From: Candidatus Parcubacteria bacterium
Lineage (GTDB): Bacteria > Patescibacteriota > Minisyncoccia > Phycocordibacterales > CAIZLB01
Reading direction: 5' to 3'
Length of the DNA stretch: 44,265 bases
NCBI GenBank assembly: GCA_043722755.1
Contig: JAYSOO010000100.1
Location: forward strand, 1 to 44,265
A program made the position numbers and the translations under genes. The stretch's first letter is position 1, and each line of letters opens with the position of its first letter. The notes under the pieces are model-generated. The model made no database searches. It saw only the letters and a list, made by a program, of their open reading frames with translations, and was not told where the DNA came from. This document shows, piece after piece, positions 25,395-43,808 of this stretch.

Positions 25395-25467
25395 ATAAAC
25401 AAGTCAGACCTCCATGTGAGGACTATCCAAAGGGTAGTCCAAAAGCTCACAGGAGGCTTTGTTTTTT
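25395..25467 (+). ncRNA. candidate structured sRNA convergent with DUF3800 copy 2
   Basis: Driven by promoter 25361-25388. It has the same closing helices, with compensatory changes (TGTGAG/CTCACA). Apical hairpin GACTA/TAGTC. Ends in a T6 run. Overlaps the 3' end of ORF 25404..26006 in antisense. Confidence 0.55.
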
Positions 25468-26006
25468 ATTATAGTTATGAGATTTTGTAACTTCATAAAA
25501 TATTTAGGTGAGTCATGTTCAAAATTTGAAAATATAGACCAAGAATAAAAATCTGCAATTTGAAGAGATTTTTCTTTATTCGGTTCTGAAAAAATCGCTT
25601 TTAATCCATATAGTAAATACATCTCGAGTATTTTCTTATTGTAATACTTTCTAATATCTTTTCTGGCTATAGTGACATTTTTTATATTATTTTCTTTAAA
25701 ATATTTAGCCAGCTCCTCAAGCGTGTAGAGATAAACATCTTTTTCAAATTGTTTATCTTTATCAAAAACATAAACAACACACTGTATATTGCTCTCAATT
25801 ATTTTCTGTACGAGCTTATTCTTAACGACTTTATTCTCTTTATGTGCATGGAAGTTTACTGATCTATCAATTTTAAATTTATGAATATTCTTTGCAATAC
25901 GTCGCAACATGAAAATATCATTAACAATAACACTTGTTAATATAAAATATCTACTTGATTTCTTTTTGTATCCAGTGTCCCCACTTTCATCTATGTATGC
26001 ATACAT
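25404..26006 (-). CDS. DUF3800-family protein (copy 2)
   Basis: 200-aa ORF starting MYAYIDESGDTGY, paralog of 9349..9900. The last ~21 codons extend beyond the homologous end of copy 1 and are antisense to the candidate sRNA. Confidence 0.7.
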   Translation of the reverse strand: MYAYIDESGDTGYKKKSSRYFILTSVIVNDIFMLRRIAKNIHKFKIDRSVNFHAHKENKVVKNKLVQKIIESNIQCVVYVFDKDKQFEKDVYLYTLEELAKYFKENNIKNVTIARKDIRKYYNKKILEMYLLYGLKAIFSEPNKEKSLQIADFYSWSIFSNFEHDSPKYFMKLQNLITIIKNKASCELLDYPLDSPHMEV

Positions 26007-28747: not shown

Positions 28748-29044
28748 TTATGTAAAACGTGTTTTTTTTATTGGACTACTATCAAAAACCAAAGACCAAA
28801 GTGAAAGTGATTTTTTATTCCATTCAGACACATTTGAATTATGTATAGCTGTTGATATTTCCTCTTTCGTAAAATTATCAAAAAGCCACGTAACAGCATA
28901 AGTTGTACCCATATTTAAGATATTTTTAATGATGAGCAACCTATGGTCAGGCAACGACAAATCGATCTTATCTGTATCATAAGACCAAAGACATACTTTT
29001 ACTGAGTCAGGTAAATCATATTTCATATATGTATTATACCACAA
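28748..29044 (-). CDS. hypothetical small protein
   Basis: 98-aa ORF with no confident family assignment. Confidence 0.4.
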   Translation of the reverse strand: MWYNTYMKYDLPDSVKVCLWSYDTDKIDLSLPDHRLLIIKNILNMGTTYAVTWLFDNFTKEEISTAIHNSNVSEWNKKSLSLWSLVFDSSPIKKTRFT

Positions 29045-29080: not shown

Positions 29081-29108
29081 TTGACACATTTTAAAAATTT
29101 GATAACAT
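29081..29108 (+). promoter_or_regulatory. promoter of the candidate sRNA (MazF-like copy 1)
   Basis: TTGACA, a 16-nt spacer, then TGaTAACAT (an extended -10 element). Confidence 0.5.
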
Positions 29109-29113
29109 ATAAA

Positions 29114-29172
29114 GCACGAGAGTAACGCTCTCTTTGCCTTCGGGCCAGCAGCATCCAGTTGGATGTTGTTTT
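29114..29172 (+). ncRNA. candidate sRNA convergent with MazF-like copy 1
   Basis: Driven by promoter 29081-29108. Hairpins GAGAGT/GCTCTC (29118-29132) and GCC-TTCG-GGC (29136-29145). A 10-bp terminator stem (29147-29170) has two G:T pairs that work only on the + strand. A U-rich tail abuts the toxin stop codon. Confidence 0.5.
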
Positions 29173-29560
29173 ACTTTACATAAAGGTGACTAAAGTGTTT
29201 AAATAATTTTTTGTATTTGTTTTTAGATAAAGTGTACATCTTACTGACCAACCTTCTCCTGTCAAAACTCCTGATTTGGCAAAACAATACACCATGTTTT
29301 TTATTATCATTCGTAAATATAAAACTTTTATGTTTATCTGGGTATAGCTTTGTGGTTAAGGGCATGCCAATAAACATGTTTGGTATTTCAGTATTTATAA
29401 CCAGCACAGGTCTCAAGAAACCCAAACCTTTTCCATAGATTTCTTTCCCTATATTCATACCTAGATTACACCACCATATTTCCCTAATTTTTGGATTAAG
29501 ATATCTTTTGGTACTATTTATCTTTTGCTTTTTTATATTCCATATATTGTATACATTCAT
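29171..29560 (-). CDS. MazF/PemK-family toxin-like protein (orphan, copy 1)
   Basis: EIWWCNLGMNIGKEIYGKGLGFLRPVLVI and QIRSFDRRRL parallel the GDVYFADL..G.EQ.G.RPVLVI and IRTIDKQRL motifs of EndoA/MazF. No antitoxin-sized ORF is adjacent. Confidence 0.75.
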   Translation of the reverse strand: MNVYNIWNIKKQKINSTKRYLNPKIREIWWCNLGMNIGKEIYGKGLGFLRPVLVINTEIPNMFIGMPLTTKLYPDKHKSFIFTNDNKKHGVLFCQIRSFDRRRLVSKMYTLSKNKYKKLFKHFSHLYVK

Positions 29561-29681
29561 TCGAATATTTTAACAAGCAGGTCATCAAGAAAAACAAGAG
29601 AAATACCGAAGTTTTATCTGTGGAAATAATTAACCCTCTTGTGGCTAAAATAAAAATTCTAAAGAAAAAATATGAATTTTT

Positions 29682-31682
29682 CTACCGCACCTCAAACCCT
29701 GCCCCAACCAAAACACTCGCAATCTCCCCCATAACCCCCTTCGTCTCCTCCTCAGTCAACGTCTTCTCATATGACTGGAACACAAATCGATACGCATAAG
29801 ACGTCTTCCCATCTTTCTTGAAAATATCAAACCTGAAATAATTTTCTATAAGTGGTTGTTTTGCAACTTCATCTTTTATCATATGTTCTATATCCTCCTC
29901 ACCCTTACCCAACTCATCACTCACAAAAAATGCTATATCACGACTCATAGTTGGGTAGTCAGATCCTTTTTTATATTTCATACCTTTAATCAGTGCATTA
30001 TCAGATAAATAATTGTTTGCATGTTCAATATGCTCAAGTGAAATATTGTCCAGATTCAATTCACAAATAATAGTATTATTAATTGTCTCTATTTTTCCAC
30101 CCACCAAACCGAGCTCTGTTACTATCTCACCCATAGCATCCTCAGCTTTTTTATCTTTCGGCCATTTCACCATTCCAAGCCCTATAGCTAGATGATTCTC
30201 CTCAACGACATCATTTCCACTTTGAGAAAATACTTTTCCAATTTCAAAAATCTTAACTGTATTTTTTGAAACGAGATCCAGATATTTAAAGTTATTTAGA
30301 ACTGCTTTTATAATATTATTTTTCAAATCGCCTCGTAAACTATCTCTATCTGCCGTCAATGAATTTTCTAACAGAATAGAATTAGAATTTACTTTTGAAT
30401 CAACAAGAGTGTGCAGTATCACCTCATCAAAGTCGCGTGCTTTAAAGAATTTTCTCAAGTTGAAAATAAGCTTGTCAGTATTATTTATTAATCCCAAACT
30501 TGGAGTACTACTGTCCTTAAAAGTCTCATCATATTTCAAAGATTCAAAACCTTTATTTCTTAAAAATTCATCAGCTACATCTTCTGGTAGATTTAAATCT
30601 GAACGGTGATATGGAACGGTTATTGTATAATTACCCTCTGTTGTCTTTATCACCTCGGCACCAGTTTTTGGTAAAGTATATTCCAAGAACGAAATGAGTT
30701 GATCTGGAATAGTTGTATCTTTTGAATCTATCATCTTAGATATATTGTCAATAGTGATGTCAATAGTCTTTCTATTATTTTTATTGATGATATGAGATAT
30801 GTCATTTGAGATTTCAGTCTCGTGCACTTTTATCTCTGGTTTATCCCAAGTTAAAAGATGAATATAATCTTGCACCGCTAACAAAAATCTTTCTTTATTT
30901 AACCCTTGCTCAAAACGTTTTGATGAATCATTTAACAAGTTTAATGATCGCGCAGTTTTTCTGACTGTTGTTTGGTTAAAATTTGCAGACTCTAAATACA
31001 CACTAATTGTGTGTTCATCAACCTCAGCTTTGCTTCCTCCCTTCACACCAGCAATAGCCAAGATATCTTTACTGTCTCGTATAACCAATGTATTAGGCTC
31101 TAATTTTATTTCTTTACCGCCGAGTAAGGTTATAGTCTCTCCTTCTTTTGAGAGATCAACATGAATATGACCATAGACTTTATCAGCATCAAAAACATGC
31201 AATGGTTGCCCACTATCAAACATGACAAAGTTTGTCAGATCAACTAACAATGATTTTGGATTTTGACCAATAGCTGTTAAAGATTTTTTTATCCACTCTG
31301 GTGATTCTATGTTTTTAATATTTTCTATTTTAGTAATCGAATACACTGGACATAACTCTGTTAGAAATTTATTTACAATTTCATGATTGACAGAAAACTT
31401 TGTAAGTAATATATCTTTATCAGTTATATCAAATCTAATATTTTCATCGATAATAAGCTCGGGAATAAGTAGAGATAATTCCAAAGCCACATATCTAAGC
31501 CCATGGGCATATGGTCCACGGTCAGGTGTTATCTTGATATCATATATAAAATCATCGTCTTTTTCCTCAAAAGAATCAACCTCAAAAGCGTGCATAGTGA
31601 GAATATCTACTAGGTTTTTTGGTGTTGGTAAAACATCTGGATTTTTGTAGTATGTTGATAACCAGTTATATGAAATAAGCAT
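29682..31682 (-). CDS. pheT: phenylalanine--tRNA ligase beta subunit, lacking the B2 OB-fold domain
   Basis: MLISYNWL start, B3/B4 core (GQPLHVFDADKV), B5 and a C-terminal FDX-ACB-like end. At 666 aa it is shorter than the ~800 aa typical of bacteria. The segment between EVD and ITPDR is only ~15 aa. Confidence 0.9.
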   Translation of the reverse strand: MLISYNWLSTYYKNPDVLPTPKNLVDILTMHAFEVDSFEEKDDDFIYDIKITPDRGPYAHGLRYVALELSLLIPELIIDENIRFDITDKDILLTKFSVNHEIVNKFLTELCPVYSITKIENIKNIESPEWIKKSLTAIGQNPKSLLVDLTNFVMFDSGQPLHVFDADKVYGHIHVDLSKEGETITLLGGKEIKLEPNTLVIRDSKDILAIAGVKGGSKAEVDEHTISVYLESANFNQTTVRKTARSLNLLNDSSKRFEQGLNKERFLLAVQDYIHLLTWDKPEIKVHETEISNDISHIINKNNRKTIDITIDNISKMIDSKDTTIPDQLISFLEYTLPKTGAEVIKTTEGNYTITVPYHRSDLNLPEDVADEFLRNKGFESLKYDETFKDSSTPSLGLINNTDKLIFNLRKFFKARDFDEVILHTLVDSKVNSNSILLENSLTADRDSLRGDLKNNIIKAVLNNFKYLDLVSKNTVKIFEIGKVFSQSGNDVVEENHLAIGLGMVKWPKDKKAEDAMGEIVTELGLVGGKIETINNTIICELNLDNISLEHIEHANNYLSDNALIKGMKYKKGSDYPTMSRDIAFFVSDELGKGEEDIEHMIKDEVAKQPLIENYFRFDIFKKDGKTSYAYRFVFQSYEKTLTEEETKGVMGEIASVLVGAGFEVR

Positions 31683-38808: not shown

Positions 38809-39480
38809 TTATTCCTTTTCGTTTTCCTTGTCAACGTTTAAAGGAAAAATTACTGATTTAACAATCTTATTCGAAAAATAACAATAAAAATAGTCTTTAT
38901 TGTAATTATGCTTAGCATAGATAGCATTCGCAAACATATCGACAGCTTGTAAATTTTTATGTTTTCGAGAATTTTCATACCTAACGTATATTTGTTTATT
39001 GTAGAGCGAATATTTTAACAATTCGGTGCGTAAATAATCTTCAAGAGATTTTTCTGATGTTATTTTTACATTCCTTTCATCTATGGTTACATATACATTT
39101 AACACATCTGTTTTCATTAGCAATGGATGCATCATTAATTGAACCATATAATTAAAACAAATATCTTTATTTTTAAATAATTCAGGATGCACATTATCTT
39201 TGTCTACGATTAAATAGTAGATATTAAAATCAATTGGATCTACATACGTAAAAAAGAATTTCTTATCATTAAAAGCCATTTGATTTGAGTGCAATTCTTT
39301 ATCCTTACCTGTTTTAGATTTTTCTTTTATAATATATTTAACCATGCTAGCAAACTTTTTTCCTTGAAAATCATCAAGCATTAAAGCACATATGACAAAA
39401 TATCGACCATTCTTTCCAATGTCCATTGTTCCCGACTCGTCTATGTAGATGTATAATTCGTTTTTGTCCACGTAGGACAA
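38809..39480 (-). CDS. DUF3800-family protein (copy 3, divergent)
   Basis: 223-aa ORF with LYIYIDESGTMD near the N-terminus. It has a TTG start as drawn, so the exact start is uncertain. Lies directly downstream of the Type III res gene. Confidence 0.6.
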   Translation of the reverse strand: MSYVDKNELYIYIDESGTMDIGKNGRYFVICALMLDDFQGKKFASMVKYIIKEKSKTGKDKELHSNQMAFNDKKFFFTYVDPIDFNIYYLIVDKDNVHPELFKNKDICFNYMVQLMMHPLLMKTDVLNVYVTIDERNVKITSEKSLEDYLRTELLKYSLYNKQIYVRYENSRKHKNLQAVDMFANAIYAKHNYNKDYFYCYFSNKIVKSVIFPLNVDKENEKE

Positions 39481-39547: not shown

Positions 39548-41818
39548 TTATAATTCTAACTTTTTCCATGTTTTACTATCTCCCATTTGCCATTCCTTAT
39601 CTTTATATATAACAATACCGCCAAAAACATTTTTATTCTTTTTTATGTAATCATGCAATGCTTCAGATTTTGCTTTTGTAAATGTATGAACATCTCTATC
39701 TGATTCATCTTTTGTTTCGAATATACCGATTTTTCCATCTTTAAATTGAACAATGTAATCAGGATAAAAAGTATGGACAGGATCTTTTCCGTCCTTATTA
39801 TCGAATTCGTAGCGAATACCGAAGTAATCATCTCTGTTAACACCATTTTTGTACCACCAAGAAATCATATTCGATCCATCGAGTACTTTTTCGAATTCTT
39901 TTTCTGGGTTTGAACGGTTTCTGTCTAAATAACATGGGTTTAATATATATCTTTTGTAATCAATCACCTCCGTAACTTGAGAGTTGAAATAATCCTTGGA
40001 TGGAATCTCAAACACAGAAGGATGCTCGGTATCTTCTTTTGCTTTTTGTTTTTTAACTATTGAATACTCGTTAACTGCCCGAATAAATATTGGTTCAATC
40101 TTAGATTTATTTAAAATAAGTATAGCCTGAGTGGATAGGAAATAATCTTTTGTAACATCAGGACCAAAAATGTTTTGACACATAATAAGCCAAGCGACAT
40201 TCATAGACGGAACAGATCTAGCCACGTTCGTAAAGGGTACCATCATATACCTAAACAAACCCTTTGCAGTAAGTTCGATTTGTCTATCACTTACATTTAG
40301 AGTCTCATAATCATCTTCTTCAAGGGGTGTATTGTATTTATCTATCACACTTATTTCAACAAAAATATCAGATATAACTTTATGATAAATATCCCCCCTT
40401 TCAAATTTCCAACCTACTTTGCTGAGTTTATCTATATTTTTTGTATGATCCCCCGCCTTTAAATCAAGTTCTTTCAAAAATTGATTTAACAATACCGGTT
40501 TAAAATCTGACTTAATATCTTGATAATCTGCACGCTCTTTGTAAAAGGAATTAAGGTGTATTGGTTTATAGGCATCCTTTCTAACTGCCAACTGATCACC
40601 TAATATCTTTGGATTATAATTTTCAATATCAAATGATACATCATCCGAGTTAACATATACATAGGCTTTATTTAAAGACTCTACTTCATAATGTTTCTGT
40701 TCTGGTGTTCTCAATATTCTACCTAGAACCTGTATTTCAAACACTTCACTTTGTATCTCTCTAAACTTTAACAACACTTGTGCCCGAGGACAATCCCATC
40801 CTACTGCGATAGCTTGTTTAAATATCAAAAACTCTTGTATTCCATCATTTTTACTTATATTTTCTATATTTCTCTCCTTTACATCCTTTTCATGTAACCA
40901 AATAGCAAGTCGTTCATCATCTTGATCAATTCCTTTTTCCTTTTTTAAAAAATCTAAAACTACCTCCTTAATAGACTCCCCATCTCCACTATTTGGTAAC
41001 TGTATAAGTAGTAGAGGATTAACGTCTATGCCATTTTCCTTATAAAGTTTTGCAAGCTCATCCCTCTTGTGAACAGCGGTTCGTAAAACAGTCTGGTCAC
41101 TGTCATCTTTTTTCAATAACACAAAACCAGCATTTACCAATATCTGATCTTTAATCATCTCTTCGTCAATAACATCCTGTGCTTCTATTTCTTCTTTGTA
41201 GAATTCAGTTGCATCATTGATGTTAACTTTAGGTGTGGCGGAAACCTCTATAACTACATTTGGATTTATCAAATCAATAATCTCGCCACTACGTAGTGAA
41301 TCTGTGTGACTTTGAGACTCATCTATAATTAATATTATTTTTCTATTGATAGAGTTGGTATTATCTAGCATTTCCCTAAAATTTACATGATCACCGTCTT
41401 TCATTACGATGTTTTTCCATTCTTGAGTTTTATTATCCTTAGACCGTATCTTATTCCAGCTCGAAACCAAAACTGAATCTTTTGAAAGTTCATATCGTGC
41501 CGTACCAAAAACATCTTCAATGCTTTCTATTTTTACATTTTCACCAATATTTTTTTGCAATGATCTTTTACTTTGATTATGTAGATCCCCTGTTCCAATA
41601 GATAACCACAAAAAAGTAAAATCAATATTTTTACTCTCTTTATTTTCTTTTATCAAACTCTCTATAATTCCAGCCATCATGACTGTTTTACCTGACCCTG
41701 TTGGAGCTTTGAAAGTTATAACTCTTTTTTTATCATCTTTATAAGATAAAAAAGAATTGGCTTTATTTTTTATATTCGCAACAGCTTTTTGTTGATATTC
41801 TTTAAGTGTAAATTTCAT
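39548..41818 (-). CDS. res: Type III restriction enzyme, Res subunit (SF2 helicase plus PD-(D/E)xK nuclease)
   Basis: 756-aa ORF. Motif I KAPTGSGKTVMM, motif II LIIDESQSH and a C-terminal PDYIV...ETKDE nuclease-like motif. Lies 6 nt downstream of mod. Confidence 0.85.
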   Translation of the reverse strand: MKFTLKEYQQKAVANIKNKANSFLSYKDDKKRVITFKAPTGSGKTVMMAGIIESLIKENKESKNIDFTFLWLSIGTGDLHNQSKRSLQKNIGENVKIESIEDVFGTARYELSKDSVLVSSWNKIRSKDNKTQEWKNIVMKDGDHVNFREMLDNTNSINRKIILIIDESQSHTDSLRSGEIIDLINPNVVIEVSATPKVNINDATEFYKEEIEAQDVIDEEMIKDQILVNAGFVLLKKDDSDQTVLRTAVHKRDELAKLYKENGIDVNPLLLIQLPNSGDGESIKEVVLDFLKKEKGIDQDDERLAIWLHEKDVKERNIENISKNDGIQEFLIFKQAIAVGWDCPRAQVLLKFREIQSEVFEIQVLGRILRTPEQKHYEVESLNKAYVYVNSDDVSFDIENYNPKILGDQLAVRKDAYKPIHLNSFYKERADYQDIKSDFKPVLLNQFLKELDLKAGDHTKNIDKLSKVGWKFERGDIYHKVISDIFVEISVIDKYNTPLEEDDYETLNVSDRQIELTAKGLFRYMMVPFTNVARSVPSMNVAWLIMCQNIFGPDVTKDYFLSTQAILILNKSKIEPIFIRAVNEYSIVKKQKAKEDTEHPSVFEIPSKDYFNSQVTEVIDYKRYILNPCYLDRNRSNPEKEFEKVLDGSNMISWWYKNGVNRDDYFGIRYEFDNKDGKDPVHTFYPDYIVQFKDGKIGIFETKDESDRDVHTFTKAKSEALHDYIKKNKNVFGGIVIYKDKEWQMGDSKTWKKLEL

Positions 41819-41824
41819 ATAGTT

Positions 41825-43510
41825 TTATTTAATACTTGGCATTTCTTCTATGTTTATATTTTTCCAATCTTTCAATTTTTCTATTGTTTCTTTTGGATTT
41901 GTAAGTGAGAATATATAGGCTGATTTTGTACCCACAAATTTTTCTAAATCTTTGTACATGTTTTCTAGATCCACATCATCTATGCCGTAATATATGGCTG
42001 TACTGTGAGCTAAGTTATTCATAATCTTATACGATGGTTTTGTAACATTAATATCAAAAATACCTTCCTTTAAAGAAATCAAATCAGTAGAATTTTTAGA
42101 TAGATTAAATTTCATATTATCTTCATGTTTTATTCTGTCAATAAAATCGCATTTTAAATATTCTAAATTCCCACCCAAACATTCTACCTTTTCTCCTTTT
42201 TTATTTTTATATCCATTCATTACCCTTTTTAATCTTTCATAGGTAATTTTTTCTGCGATCTTGTGTTCACTTTTTTCATCCCCATTATTTGTAACTAGAA
42301 TGAATTGGCGATTACCACCATCTTCTTTATTGAGTTCGAGTACCGCGTGTCCTGTGGTCCCAGAACCCGCGAAGAAATCGAGGATGAGAGCATTTTTATT
42401 ACTAGACATTTCACACAAAGTTTTTATCAACTCAACAGGTTTTGCATTATTAAAATCTCTAACATCTAAATCTTTAATTATTTTTGTCCCATTTGTATTC
42501 GAGTAAATATTTTCAATAAAGGTTAACTGCGAGTAATTTTTAACTCTGTCATCATAATTTATATAATATCCGTTATTATTTTTTTCTATACTTGCTAGTA
42601 AATATTTTTTAGGCCAGACTCTATCATTTTTAAATTCAACAAAATCATTTTTTAAAGCAAACTCAAATTTATCCTTTGACCATGTCCATCTATATCCATT
42701 ATTTTCAGGTATACCGCCAGGATAATACAGAATATCGTTGTGTTTAATTGGGTAATCTAATGAACTTACATAACCTAAACTTATTGTATCTAGAGCTTGT
42801 TTTGTATGATAAAATCCTCTTTTTTCAAAATGAACATCTGAATACTTAAATGCCTTATCACCTTGAACTAAAATTTTATTAAAACCAGATAAGTCTATTT
42901 TTTTTGAATATGCTAACAAGTAGTCCATATTACTAGTACTGTGTGTACTTTGAGTTTTTCCTCCTTTTACTGTCAATCTAGGAAAAAAACTAATAAAATT
43001 ATCATTACCAAACACACCATCACACAACAATTTCAACTGCGCCTGTTCATTATCATCTATAGATATAAAAATAACTCCAGTATCTTTTAATAATTCTTTT
43101 GCCAGTTTCAATCTTCTTTCCATAAACGACAGCCACTTACTATGGCGATAGCCATCCTCACCATCAACAAAATTATCATTGTAAATAAAATCCTTATTCC
43201 CAGTATTATAAGGTGGATCAATATATATTACATCCACCTTGCCCTTATGCGTATAATTCAAAATCTGAAGTGCATGATAATTATCCCCTTCTATTAAAAC
43301 ATTCACTGGACCACCCTTATTATTCCTAATACTTCTTTCTTTTATATTTTTTAAAATAGGATATTTGTTCTCACACTCCAAAACAACATCTTCATCTTTA
43401 TCTTCCCACACTAAACCGTATTTTGTTTTTCTTTTTAACTTTTCTTCCAGCTCTTTTATACGAGAAAAAAGCTCTTCTTTATTTAAATCTTCTAATGACA
43501 TAGGCGACAT
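41825..43510 (-). CDS. mod: Type III DNA methyltransferase, Mod subunit (beta-class N6A/N4C)
   Basis: 561-aa ORF. Motif IV IDPPYNTG precedes motif I LDFFAGSGTTGHA. Confidence 0.9.
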   Translation of the reverse strand: MSPMSLEDLNKEELFSRIKELEEKLKRKTKYGLVWEDKDEDVVLECENKYPILKNIKERSIRNNKGGPVNVLIEGDNYHALQILNYTHKGKVDVIYIDPPYNTGNKDFIYNDNFVDGEDGYRHSKWLSFMERRLKLAKELLKDTGVIFISIDDNEQAQLKLLCDGVFGNDNFISFFPRLTVKGGKTQSTHSTSNMDYLLAYSKKIDLSGFNKILVQGDKAFKYSDVHFEKRGFYHTKQALDTISLGYVSSLDYPIKHNDILYYPGGIPENNGYRWTWSKDKFEFALKNDFVEFKNDRVWPKKYLLASIEKNNNGYYINYDDRVKNYSQLTFIENIYSNTNGTKIIKDLDVRDFNNAKPVELIKTLCEMSSNKNALILDFFAGSGTTGHAVLELNKEDGGNRQFILVTNNGDEKSEHKIAEKITYERLKRVMNGYKNKKGEKVECLGGNLEYLKCDFIDRIKHEDNMKFNLSKNSTDLISLKEGIFDINVTKPSYKIMNNLAHSTAIYYGIDDVDLENMYKDLEKFVGTKSAYIFSLTNPKETIEKLKDWKNINIEEMPSIK

Positions 43511-43555
43511 CTATGTTCATCGAGCTCCACTTATATTAATTATTAAACGACAAAA

Positions 43556-43685
43556 AGGGATACCCGATGGTCGCCACAATCATACAAGCGCAATGCCTGC
43601 AATCATGTGCATCGAGGTACCCCTCTACATGCGTGATTACTGGCATCCACTTTAAATGGTTTGCTTCTTATATGATTATGGCGAC
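43556..43685 (-). ncRNA. candidate structured leader or ncRNA upstream of the Type III mod gene
   Basis: Extended -10 TGCTATACT on the minus strand (43692-43700). A 15-bp closing helix joins 43685-43671 with 43584-43570; one G:T pair is valid only on the minus strand. Inner hairpin at 43601-43638. GGG-TAT-CCC plus T5 at 43565-43552. Confidence 0.4.
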
Positions 43686-43723
43686 ATGGCTAGTATAGCA
43701 TAACAGGTTGATCATTTACAGAT

Positions 43724-43751
43724 TTGACAGATCTGTTCCTTTTGCTATAAT
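43724..43751 (+). promoter_or_regulatory. promoter of the candidate sRNA (MazF-like copy 2)
   Basis: TTGACA, a 16-nt spacer ending TGC, then TATAAT. Confidence 0.6.
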
Positions 43752-43757
43752 ATAAGC

Positions 43758-43808
43758 ACAAATGGGTTATCCCGGACATCCGAGCTTTTCAGCTCGGATT
43801 TAATTTTT
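43758..43808 (+). ncRNA. candidate sRNA convergent with MazF-like copy 2
   Basis: Driven by promoter 43724-43751. Its 5' end ATAAGCAC matches copy 1 (ATAAAGCAC). Hairpins GGG-TTAT-CCC and ATCCGAGC/GCTCGGAT (43778-43799), then a T-rich tail reaching the toxin stop codon. Confidence 0.5.

Follow-up and report, generated by a model that had tools for sequence, protein, structure and literature searches.

A gene for a MazF/PemK-family toxin and, facing it, a predicted small RNA (sRNA) that ends at the toxin stop codon were analyzed on contig JAYSOO010000100.1 of a Candidatus Parcubacteria bacterium, an AT-rich stretch (34% GC) of 44,265 nucleotides (nt) that is called the window below. The pair, at 29081-29560, is the first of two such copies in the window (copy 1 and copy 2). 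Judged from sequence, it is probably a two-gene module of toxin and RNA antitoxin, in which a toxic protein would be neutralized by the sRNA, possibly by an antisense route. The MazF toxins, textbook examples of type II, are normally neutralized by the protein MazE. A preliminary description of the region had proposed that this MazF-family toxin is under RNA rather than protein control. That proposal is supported by the recurrence of the toxin-sRNA pairing in related genomes, by a MazE domain at only one of 76 toxin loci and by the sRNA CJpv3 of Campylobacter jejuni, whereas its novelty is smaller than it had seemed, as Campylobacter provides a precedent.

The toxin and the sRNA of copy 1

The toxin gene (29171-29560, minus strand) is an open reading frame (ORF) of 129 amino acids (aa), and the MazF/PemK motifs that had been noticed in it agree with its Pfam match, its predicted fold and its catalytic residues. 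The protein matched PF02452 (PemK_toxin) with 43.2 bits against a cut-off of 23.1 (expectation value, E, 5e-11), and in a profile search of PDB sequences the top match was Bacillus subtilis MazF/EndoA (E 5e-10). An AlphaFold2 model was obtained with a predicted local distance difference test score of 82. Its best 50 Foldseek matches in the PDB were MazF or MoxT throughout, at template modelling scores of about 0.55-0.7, and none of ToxN, AbiQ and CptN was among these 50. The predicted fold is the MazF/Kid SH3-like barrel. The invariant R50 is aligned to R25, the catalytic arginine of B. subtilis MazF, and the conserved Thr/Ser of a P-L-T/S-S/T-K motif is aligned to MazF T48; by these residues the toxin appears to be a catalytically intact endoribonuclease of the MazF clade. 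The hallmark of the subfamily is an N-terminal extension of about 25-30 aa, predicted to form two helices, with the invariant residues W7 and K11 and the motif REIWW..G.N.G.E.YGKG...RPVLVI. No specific family for the copy-1 toxin was found in NCBIfam or PADLOC.

The sRNA promoter lies on the plus strand at 29081-29108 and consists of the -35 box TTGACA (29081-29086), a 16-nt spacer and the extended -10 box TGaTAACAT (29100-29108, with TG at 29100-01 and TAACAT at 29103-29108). With 10 of 12 consensus positions it equals one minus-strand site within the toxin ORF (also 10/12), but only the sRNA promoter has the TG. The promoter scan of the region gave 4 promoter-like matches against 5.8 expected. 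The transcription start site (TSS) was placed 7-8 nt past the -10 box, a rule that was checked on CJpv3, where the mapped TSS is the seventh nt past TATAAT. The resulting transcript, a putative RNA antitoxin of about 58 nt (29115-29173, plus strand), is predicted by folding, by a covariance model match and by a covarying consensus structure.

Three hairpins make up this RNA. Hairpin 1 (29118-29132) is GAGAGU-AAC-GCUCUC with a U:G closing pair, supported by the fold and by compensatory changes in homologues. Hairpin 2 (29136-29145), GCC-UUCG-GGC, was found by the fold and by RNAalifold; of all elements of the RNA family it is the one conserved best. The third (29147-29170) is an intrinsic terminator, found by the fold and the terminator scan, with a stem of 10 base pairs (bp) that includes two G:U pairs and is followed by UUUUA. 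The tail of the sRNA, UUA (29171-29173), is complementary to the toxin stop codon TAA. The plus strand of the sRNA folds with a minimum free energy (MFE) of -24 kcal/mol (z-score, z, -3.3), and the minus-strand counterpart less well (-19 kcal/mol, z -1.8). The terminator was called by the scan on the plus strand only; on the minus strand no U-run follows the hairpin, whose minus-strand version is weak, and the G:U pairs become A-C mismatches. The terminator is therefore strand-specific and unidirectional. The promoter with its coordinates, the three hairpins, the G:U and U:G pairs valid on the plus strand only, the U-tail ending at the stop codon and the missing U-tract on the minus strand had all been given in the preliminary description, and each was recovered here.

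The sRNA has no counterpart among the families of Rfam 15, ToxI included: the window gave no match at the gathering thresholds and the region only noise at E <= 10, and nothing was found on the sRNA in 20 related loci searched at gathering and 12 searched in E-value mode. Two named families were considered and rejected: the pemK motif (RF02913) did not match the sRNA, and a match to istR at one related locus (L033; 25.7 bits, E 0.5) was noise.

Toxin-sRNA pairing across the subfamily

Four closer homologues of the copy-1 toxin (88-60% identity; loci L093, L095, L096 and L097) all have the same promoter and a clearly homologous sRNA. L093 keeps the synteny of pheT, toxin, 119-aa gene and gyrB seen in the window, without a DUF6922 gene; the contexts of L095, L096 and L097 are unrelated, and the module therefore moves as a unit. 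RNAalifold applied to the window and the four homologues returned the same three hairpins, with 18 pairs, of which 4 show compensatory double changes. In hairpin 1 GAGAG/CUCUC is replaced by GGGAG/CUCCC in homologues, the two terminator G:U pairs are kept in 4 of the 5 sequences, and the inner terminator stem covaries.

A covariance model of this sRNA type (type A, model R1) was built from eight other loci, the window being left out. It gave one credible match in the window (29112-29177, plus strand; 64.8 bits, E 6.5e-14, full length 1-73), the next best reaching 14.9 bits. In 434 kb of loci all 17 matches of R1 lay on the strand opposite a toxin and 16 of the 17 at a toxin 3' end; co-occurrence of sRNA and toxin subfamily in other genomes had been put forward as a check in the preliminary description.

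Relatives of the toxin are numerous. A word-indexed search returned 43 homologues and a scan of one genome per species at least 565, mostly in Patescibacteria (Saccharibacteria, Paceibacterota, Nomurabacteria and others), with some in Rickettsiales and in Bdellovibrio-like bins. An exhaustive profile search gave 1,896 clusters at 50% identity (E <= 1e-10), or 363 at E <= 1e-30. The survey sample consisted of 80 fetched loci and the window, with 88 toxin copies. A convergent sigma-70-like promoter was present in 83 of the 88, and in 53 of these 83 the distance from the -10 box to the toxin stop was 48-70 nt; the outliers were mostly mis-called promoters or toxin ORFs running into the sRNA. The pairing was seen in most of the 88 copies and across Patescibacteria, Rickettsiales and Campylobacterota. 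It is the rule in this subfamily, beyond chance.

Two architectures were distinguished. Type A, found in the clade of copy 1, has a hairpin, a small UUCG or GCAA hairpin and the terminator. Type B, found at most loci and at copy 2, has a 5'-ACAAnUGG leader, a 3-4-bp UUCG-type hairpin and a variable hairpin of 5-11 bp, and often adds a third hairpin that contains the toxin stop codon. The variable hairpin 2 of type B could not be aligned by MAFFT, and structure parsing with shuffled controls was used instead; a structure-fitted alignment padded with N would have made the pair counts circular and was excluded from them. Over 53 sRNAs the median MFE z was -3.1. Both hairpins were found in 81% of the sRNAs against 19% of dinucleotide shuffles, and stems of at least 8 bp in 47% against 1.3%. 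Of 52 hairpin-2 arms 42 were distinct, and all of them pair. The covariation of hairpin 1 in a structure-blind MAFFT alignment was 0.280, a value reached in none of 500 shuffles, against 0.068 in shuffles.

The same survey addressed the strand. UUCG or GNRA loops made up 54 of 106 loops on the sRNA strand, where about 1 was expected by chance, but only 5 when the toxin strand was read; in 33 of 43 cases the sRNA strand folded more stably (p = 4e-5). The 10-mer GGCTTCGGCC/GCCTTCGGGC occurred 49 times in 440 kb, 43 of them within 90 nt of the stop codon of a toxin on the opposite strand. These signals point unambiguously to the sRNA strand.

Some loci hold more than one element. Tandem arrays of two or three modules were found at L044, L038, L064, L046 and L050, each toxin with its own, different sRNA. 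At L008 the toxin has a second type A copy (2273-2346, 62.8 bits) 140 nt upstream, at L003 (about 3018) and L009 (about 2964) a type B sRNA lies behind the type A one, and L080 (about 2405) has an extra or orphan copy away from any toxin 3' end. About 250 nt upstream of the toxin of L029 (2192-2246) there is a near-threshold match to the type III hammerhead ribozyme (46.9 bits, gathering 48.5).

A protein antitoxin was sought in the window and in the survey. The minus-strand order around copy 1 is pheT (29682-31682), a gap of 121 nt, the toxin ORF, a gap of 126 nt, a DUF6922-like ORF of 98 aa (28748-29044), an ORF of 119 aa and gyrB. The gap between the pheT stop (29682) and the toxin contains no plausible ORF, in agreement with the roughly 120 nt without an ORF, and with the lack of an antitoxin-sized ORF in the operon, described before. 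The DUF6922-like ORF (27.6 bits, cut-off 27) shares the strand of the toxin, lies downstream and separates the module from the 119-aa gene. Its absence from the otherwise syntenic L093 makes an insertion probable, and it is not conserved beside other members of the family.

Flanking ORFs were screened at >= 30 aa within 600 nt by all-versus-all BLAST and at >= 45 aa by a Pfam scan. The neighbours of the toxins vary from locus to locus in size, strand and family. The BLAST comparison found no recurrent partner, the largest cluster being the neighbouring toxin paralogues of tandem modules. A same-strand ORF of 45-160 aa just upstream was present for only 25 of 76 toxins, and among 55 flanking candidates of these 76 the Pfam scan found a single MazE_antitoxin domain, at L075. 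No conserved small antitoxin ORF was thus found for the subfamily elsewhere, and it is a subfamily without a conserved protein partner. Repeats like those of ToxI were also looked for near copy 1, where there were only two trivial, low-scoring AT-rich tandem rows and no direct-repeat families. At L075 the MazE_antitoxin ORF (2268-2450) lies 35 nt upstream of the toxin (2486-2960), and the toxin ORF runs through the whole sRNA; this locus may represent an intermediate stage in evolution or a hybrid.

The pVir precedent and the action of the sRNA

The relatives found by tblastn include plasmids of C. jejuni, C. coli, Helicobacter suis and Nitratiruptor and CJIE4-type Campylobacter prophages. Their toxins are annotated as type II PemK/MazF toxins or as "toxin MazF", with no antitoxin listed, and the RefSeq label of the members is "type II toxin-antitoxin system PemK/MazF family toxin". 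By sequence, the H. suis and Nitratiruptor plasmids have the same toxin-sRNA layout as the window. The plasmid pVir of C. jejuni 81-176 carries the toxin gene CJJ81176_pVir0047 (30634-31038, plus strand), whose product is 36% identical to copy 1 (BLASTP E 5e-19) and 41% to copy 2 (E 3e-23), shares the N-terminal extension and the motifs, and has no adjacent protein antitoxin.

In a dRNA-seq study the 77-nt sRNA CJpv3 (31119 to 31043, minus strand) was placed between pVir0047 and pVir0048 and was positive on Northern blots (Dugar 2013, Table S12, PMC3656092). The step height of its TSS was 16164 (31119), against 28 for the toxin (30608), a difference of about 580-fold (Dugar 2013, Table S5, PMC3656092). 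The toxin mRNA has a mapped 5' untranslated region (UTR) of 26 nt, and the sRNA CJpv1 was not seen on Northern blots (PMC3656092). The start of CJpv3 was mapped to the G seven bases downstream of TGATATAAT, the position predicted from the sequence. CJpv3 starts after an extended -10 box and has three hairpins, and its 3' end is 5 nt away from the toxin stop (end of the coding sequence at 31038). The pVir module resembles that of the window in its homologous toxin and in a convergent sRNA that ends at the toxin stop, the sRNA of pVir being in large excess over the toxin mRNA. On the other hand, the two sRNAs have no detectable sequence homology, and R1 had no match to the pVir, H. suis or Nitratiruptor loci at E <= 0.01. 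The pVir module is moreover plasmid-borne and its toxin mRNA has the 26-nt leader, whereas many members from Patescibacteria look leaderless.

In passages of two papers a pair named cjrA/cjpT on pVir is cited as a type I pair of RNA antitoxin and protein toxin (PMC10470494, PMC7826846). The sRNA CJpv2 is also reported, in a passage of the literature, from strain IA3902. We infer that cjrA is CJpv3 and cjpT is pVir0047; this identity is quite likely, because of the three pVir sRNAs only CJpv3 faces the toxin homologue, CJpv2 is also in IA3902, CJpv1 was negative on Northern blots and the abstract of Shen et al., of 2016, reportedly describes a cjrA/cjpT pair in 81-176. That pair is also said to be needed for maintenance of the plasmid. 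If the pVir module is cjrA/cjpT, one experimental paper has already made this kind of system known, to which the window adds two new members.

The sRNA is likely to be the antitoxin. In the mechanism proposed, the toxin would cut RNA, and the sRNA of about 58 nt, made convergently from a near-consensus promoter and in large excess, would keep it silent; loss of the module, or a stop of sRNA synthesis, would free the toxin. For the clade of copy 1 an antisense route can be drawn. There is no terminator on the minus strand, therefore the toxin transcript should read through the sRNA gene, and the 3' UTR of the read-through mRNA would be complementary to the sRNA over its whole length. The excess sRNA would pair with the toxin mRNA and lead to its degradation or silencing, as in 3'-overlapping type I systems. 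This cis-antisense overlap is predicted from the missing terminator, the sRNA itself abutting the stop codon. The tail-to-tail geometry, in which the sRNA terminator abuts or overlaps the toxin stop, is nearly invariant across three phyla, and because it is near-universal the cis arrangement itself would seem, as this suggests, to be selected. Read-through antisense, as proposed in the preliminary description, fits the copy-1 clade with its unidirectional terminator and conserved G:U pairs, although it is not the sole possible route. We put it, overall, a little below an even chance. Given an RNA antitoxin, it stands slightly ahead of direct binding for the copy-1 clade.

Several observations weigh against an RNA antitoxin that acts by the antisense route. 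L075 keeps a complete convergent sRNA alongside its MazE ORF. Pairing of the 5' part of the sRNA with the toxin translation start, compared between cognate and non-cognate partners, gave no signal (p = 0.66). UUCG and GNRA tetraloops are rigid and make poor loops for antisense recognition. The 5' part of the sRNA is conserved across phyla, which a pure cis-antisense action does not require. Finally, at 13 of 53 loci a rough classifier found the terminator flanked by A- and T-runs and possibly bidirectional; where it is, the toxin mRNA would overlap the terminator only.

The alternative that survives best is a direct, type III-like inhibition, in which the folded sRNA would fill the RNA-binding groove of a MazF-like dimer as a pseudo-substrate. 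The active elements would be the short single-stranded 5' leader and the UUCG hairpin, and the convergent layout would only link the two genes and let them share a terminator. Conservation speaks for it, since the 5'-ACAAnUGG leader, the GGC-UUCG-GCC hairpin and the GNRA-capped stems are kept across phyla outside the obligatory overlap, and the terminators of some type B loci look bidirectional. The extra sRNA copies away from toxin 3' ends (L008, L003, L009 and L080) would be trans-acting if functional, and paralogous modules of one genome have different leaders and hairpins, as expected of insulated protein-RNA pairs. The helices modelled at the N-terminus of the subfamily could form an RNA-binding surface, and ToxN-type toxins are known to share the MazF/Kid fold. 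Against direct inhibition, the near-invariant tail-to-tail layout across three phyla speaks for selection of the cis geometry itself, and there are neither tandem repeats nor an upstream same-strand RNA as in ToxIN. The Campylobacter system is, in the passages that mention it, cited as type I (PMC10470494, PMC7826846). Direct binding is possible but on the whole rather unlikely as the overall explanation, the remaining probability falling to both routes together or to another. Were it to apply, and we hold this to be doubtful, a single-copy tetraloop sRNA would bind its toxin directly, unlike the repeat-derived cyclic complexes of ToxIN, in a widespread family of Patescibacteria with leaderless mRNAs and shared bidirectional terminators.

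The sRNA might instead be a substrate, a cofactor or a trans-acting regulator of a MazF-like RNA-processing enzyme, the protein being non-toxic or otherwise controlled. The divergence of the subfamily with its N-terminal extension would fit such a role, and a lethal toxin seems risky in modules that sit among housekeeping genes (pheT, gyrB) of tiny genomes. However, the catalytic Arg and Thr/Ser are kept, and the modules are mobile, with examples on plasmids and in prophages, as tandem arrays and beside restriction-modification (R-M) systems. The excess of sRNA over toxin mRNA is of the size typical of antitoxins, and pVir is cited, in passages of two papers, as carrying a toxin-antitoxin system with an RNA antitoxin (PMC10470494, PMC7826846). 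An RNA-processing role is accordingly improbable.

It is still less probable that a protein antitoxin was overlooked, be it the DUF6922 ORF (28748-29044), an ORF of less than 45 aa or a gene elsewhere. Some toxin-antitoxin families do place the antitoxin second, the ORF screens had lower limits of 30 and 45 aa, and L075 has its MazE ORF. Against this, DUF6922 is absent from the syntenic L093 and from other loci, and the neighbours differ at nearly every locus, the 25 upstream ORFs among 76 toxins including one MazE. A small peptide encoded by the sRNA was considered as well and rejected, the sole candidate frame being shifted by a single-base indel between the window and L093. That the element is a mere 3' UTR or terminator structure of the toxin or pheT-gyrB transcript, the plus-strand promoter having arisen by chance and no sRNA being made, is hardly credible: mostly Watson-Crick hairpins do fold on both strands, and AT-rich genomes yield many promoter-like matches, as the scan of the region illustrates, but 83 of 88 copies have the promoter at a fixed distance, the tetraloops (54 against 5), conserved G:U pairs and U-tails favour the sRNA strand, which is also the more stable in 33 of 43 cases, and the corresponding, homologous C. 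jejuni sRNA has a mapped TSS and a Northern signal (PMC3656092).

Known systems, the second copy and the genomic setting

The arrangement was compared with the known types of toxin-antitoxin systems. It resembles the type I pairs B. subtilis txpA/RatA and bsrG/SR4 and Enterococcus faecalis par (fst RNA I/RNA II), which are likewise convergent with overlapping or abutting 3' ends. The strength of the antitoxin promoter and the small size and structured nature of the RNA are further likenesses, as is a shared terminator at some loci (that of par is bidirectional). Here, however, the toxin is a soluble MazF-type protein of 129 aa and not a hydrophobic peptide of less than 60 aa, no signal of pairing at the translation start was found, and UUCG/GNRA loops take the place of recognition loops. 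With the type III systems ToxIN, CptIN, TenpIN and AbiQ/antiQ it has in common an endoribonuclease of the MazF/Kid/ToxN fold with a non-coding RNA as its proposed control. The toxin belongs to the MazF clade, however, and not to ToxN, CptN or TenpN, and its RNA, made of hairpins and present in a single copy, is encoded downstream on the opposite strand, whereas that of type III systems is an upstream, same-strand array of tandem repeats. The type II systems MazEF, PemIK and Kis-Kid share with it the toxin fold, the catalytic Arg and Thr/Ser and the size class, but the MazE/PemI gene is absent here (one exception in 76 loci) and the N-terminal extension of about 25-30 aa is additional. The locus is thus like a 3'-overlapping type I system or possibly like a type III system, and it fails the defining features of both, and of type II.

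These results suggest a structured convergent sRNA as the partner of an entire MazF subfamily; if this is confirmed, the annotation as "type II" would need correcting, and the single Campylobacter example would be extended to Patescibacteria, Rickettsiales and others. The modules would then also provide a compact model in which to ask whether RNA can inhibit the MazF enzyme itself or acts only by way of the mRNA, and would define an RNA family that is absent from Rfam. In the literature searched, the size of the family, the dominance of Patescibacteria, the RNA architectures, the apparently leaderless toxin mRNAs and the question of direct inhibition of MazF by RNA appear to be undescribed.

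A putative toxin promoter was noted at copy 1, an extended -10 box (TGTTAAAAT; 29567-29575, minus strand) read from the sequence, which ends 6 nt before the ATG. In the survey a TAnnnT box ends 6-7 nt before the toxin ATG at 25 of 51 loci, and a Shine-Dalgarno-like motif is present at only 4 of the 51. This suggests that the toxin mRNA of copy 1 may be leaderless or nearly so.

Copy 2 was found by tblastn. Its toxin (43807-44190, minus strand; 127 aa) is a paralogue 33% identical to that of copy 1, and NCBIfam gave for it only CptIN, at 16.3 bits against a cut-off of 90. The copy-2 sRNA gene (43724-43809, plus strand) has the promoter TTGACA-16-TATAAT with TG (43724-43751), which agrees with the consensus at 12 of 12 positions. 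The RNA would start near 43758 with ACAAAUGGG-UUAU-CCC; its terminator is at 43778-43799, the U-tail runs into the stop codon (43807-09), and the architecture is that of type B. The copy-2 module adjoins a type III R-M pair, mod (41825-43510) and res (39548-41818). Just upstream of the start of mod, the minus strand of 43505-43715 is GC-rich and folds at -76 kcal/mol (z -5.4, against -2.4 for the plus strand). This stretch had no Rfam match and could be a structured leader or a separate non-coding RNA.

The copy-1 module, lying between pheT and gyrB, is probably chromosomal, as is the contig. Two DUF3800 genes (25404-26006 and 38809-39480) are also present in the 44-kb contig. Because of these two genes, the R-M system and the two toxin modules, the contig seems, as they suggest, to be rich in genes of mobile or defence type, interleaved with housekeeping genes.

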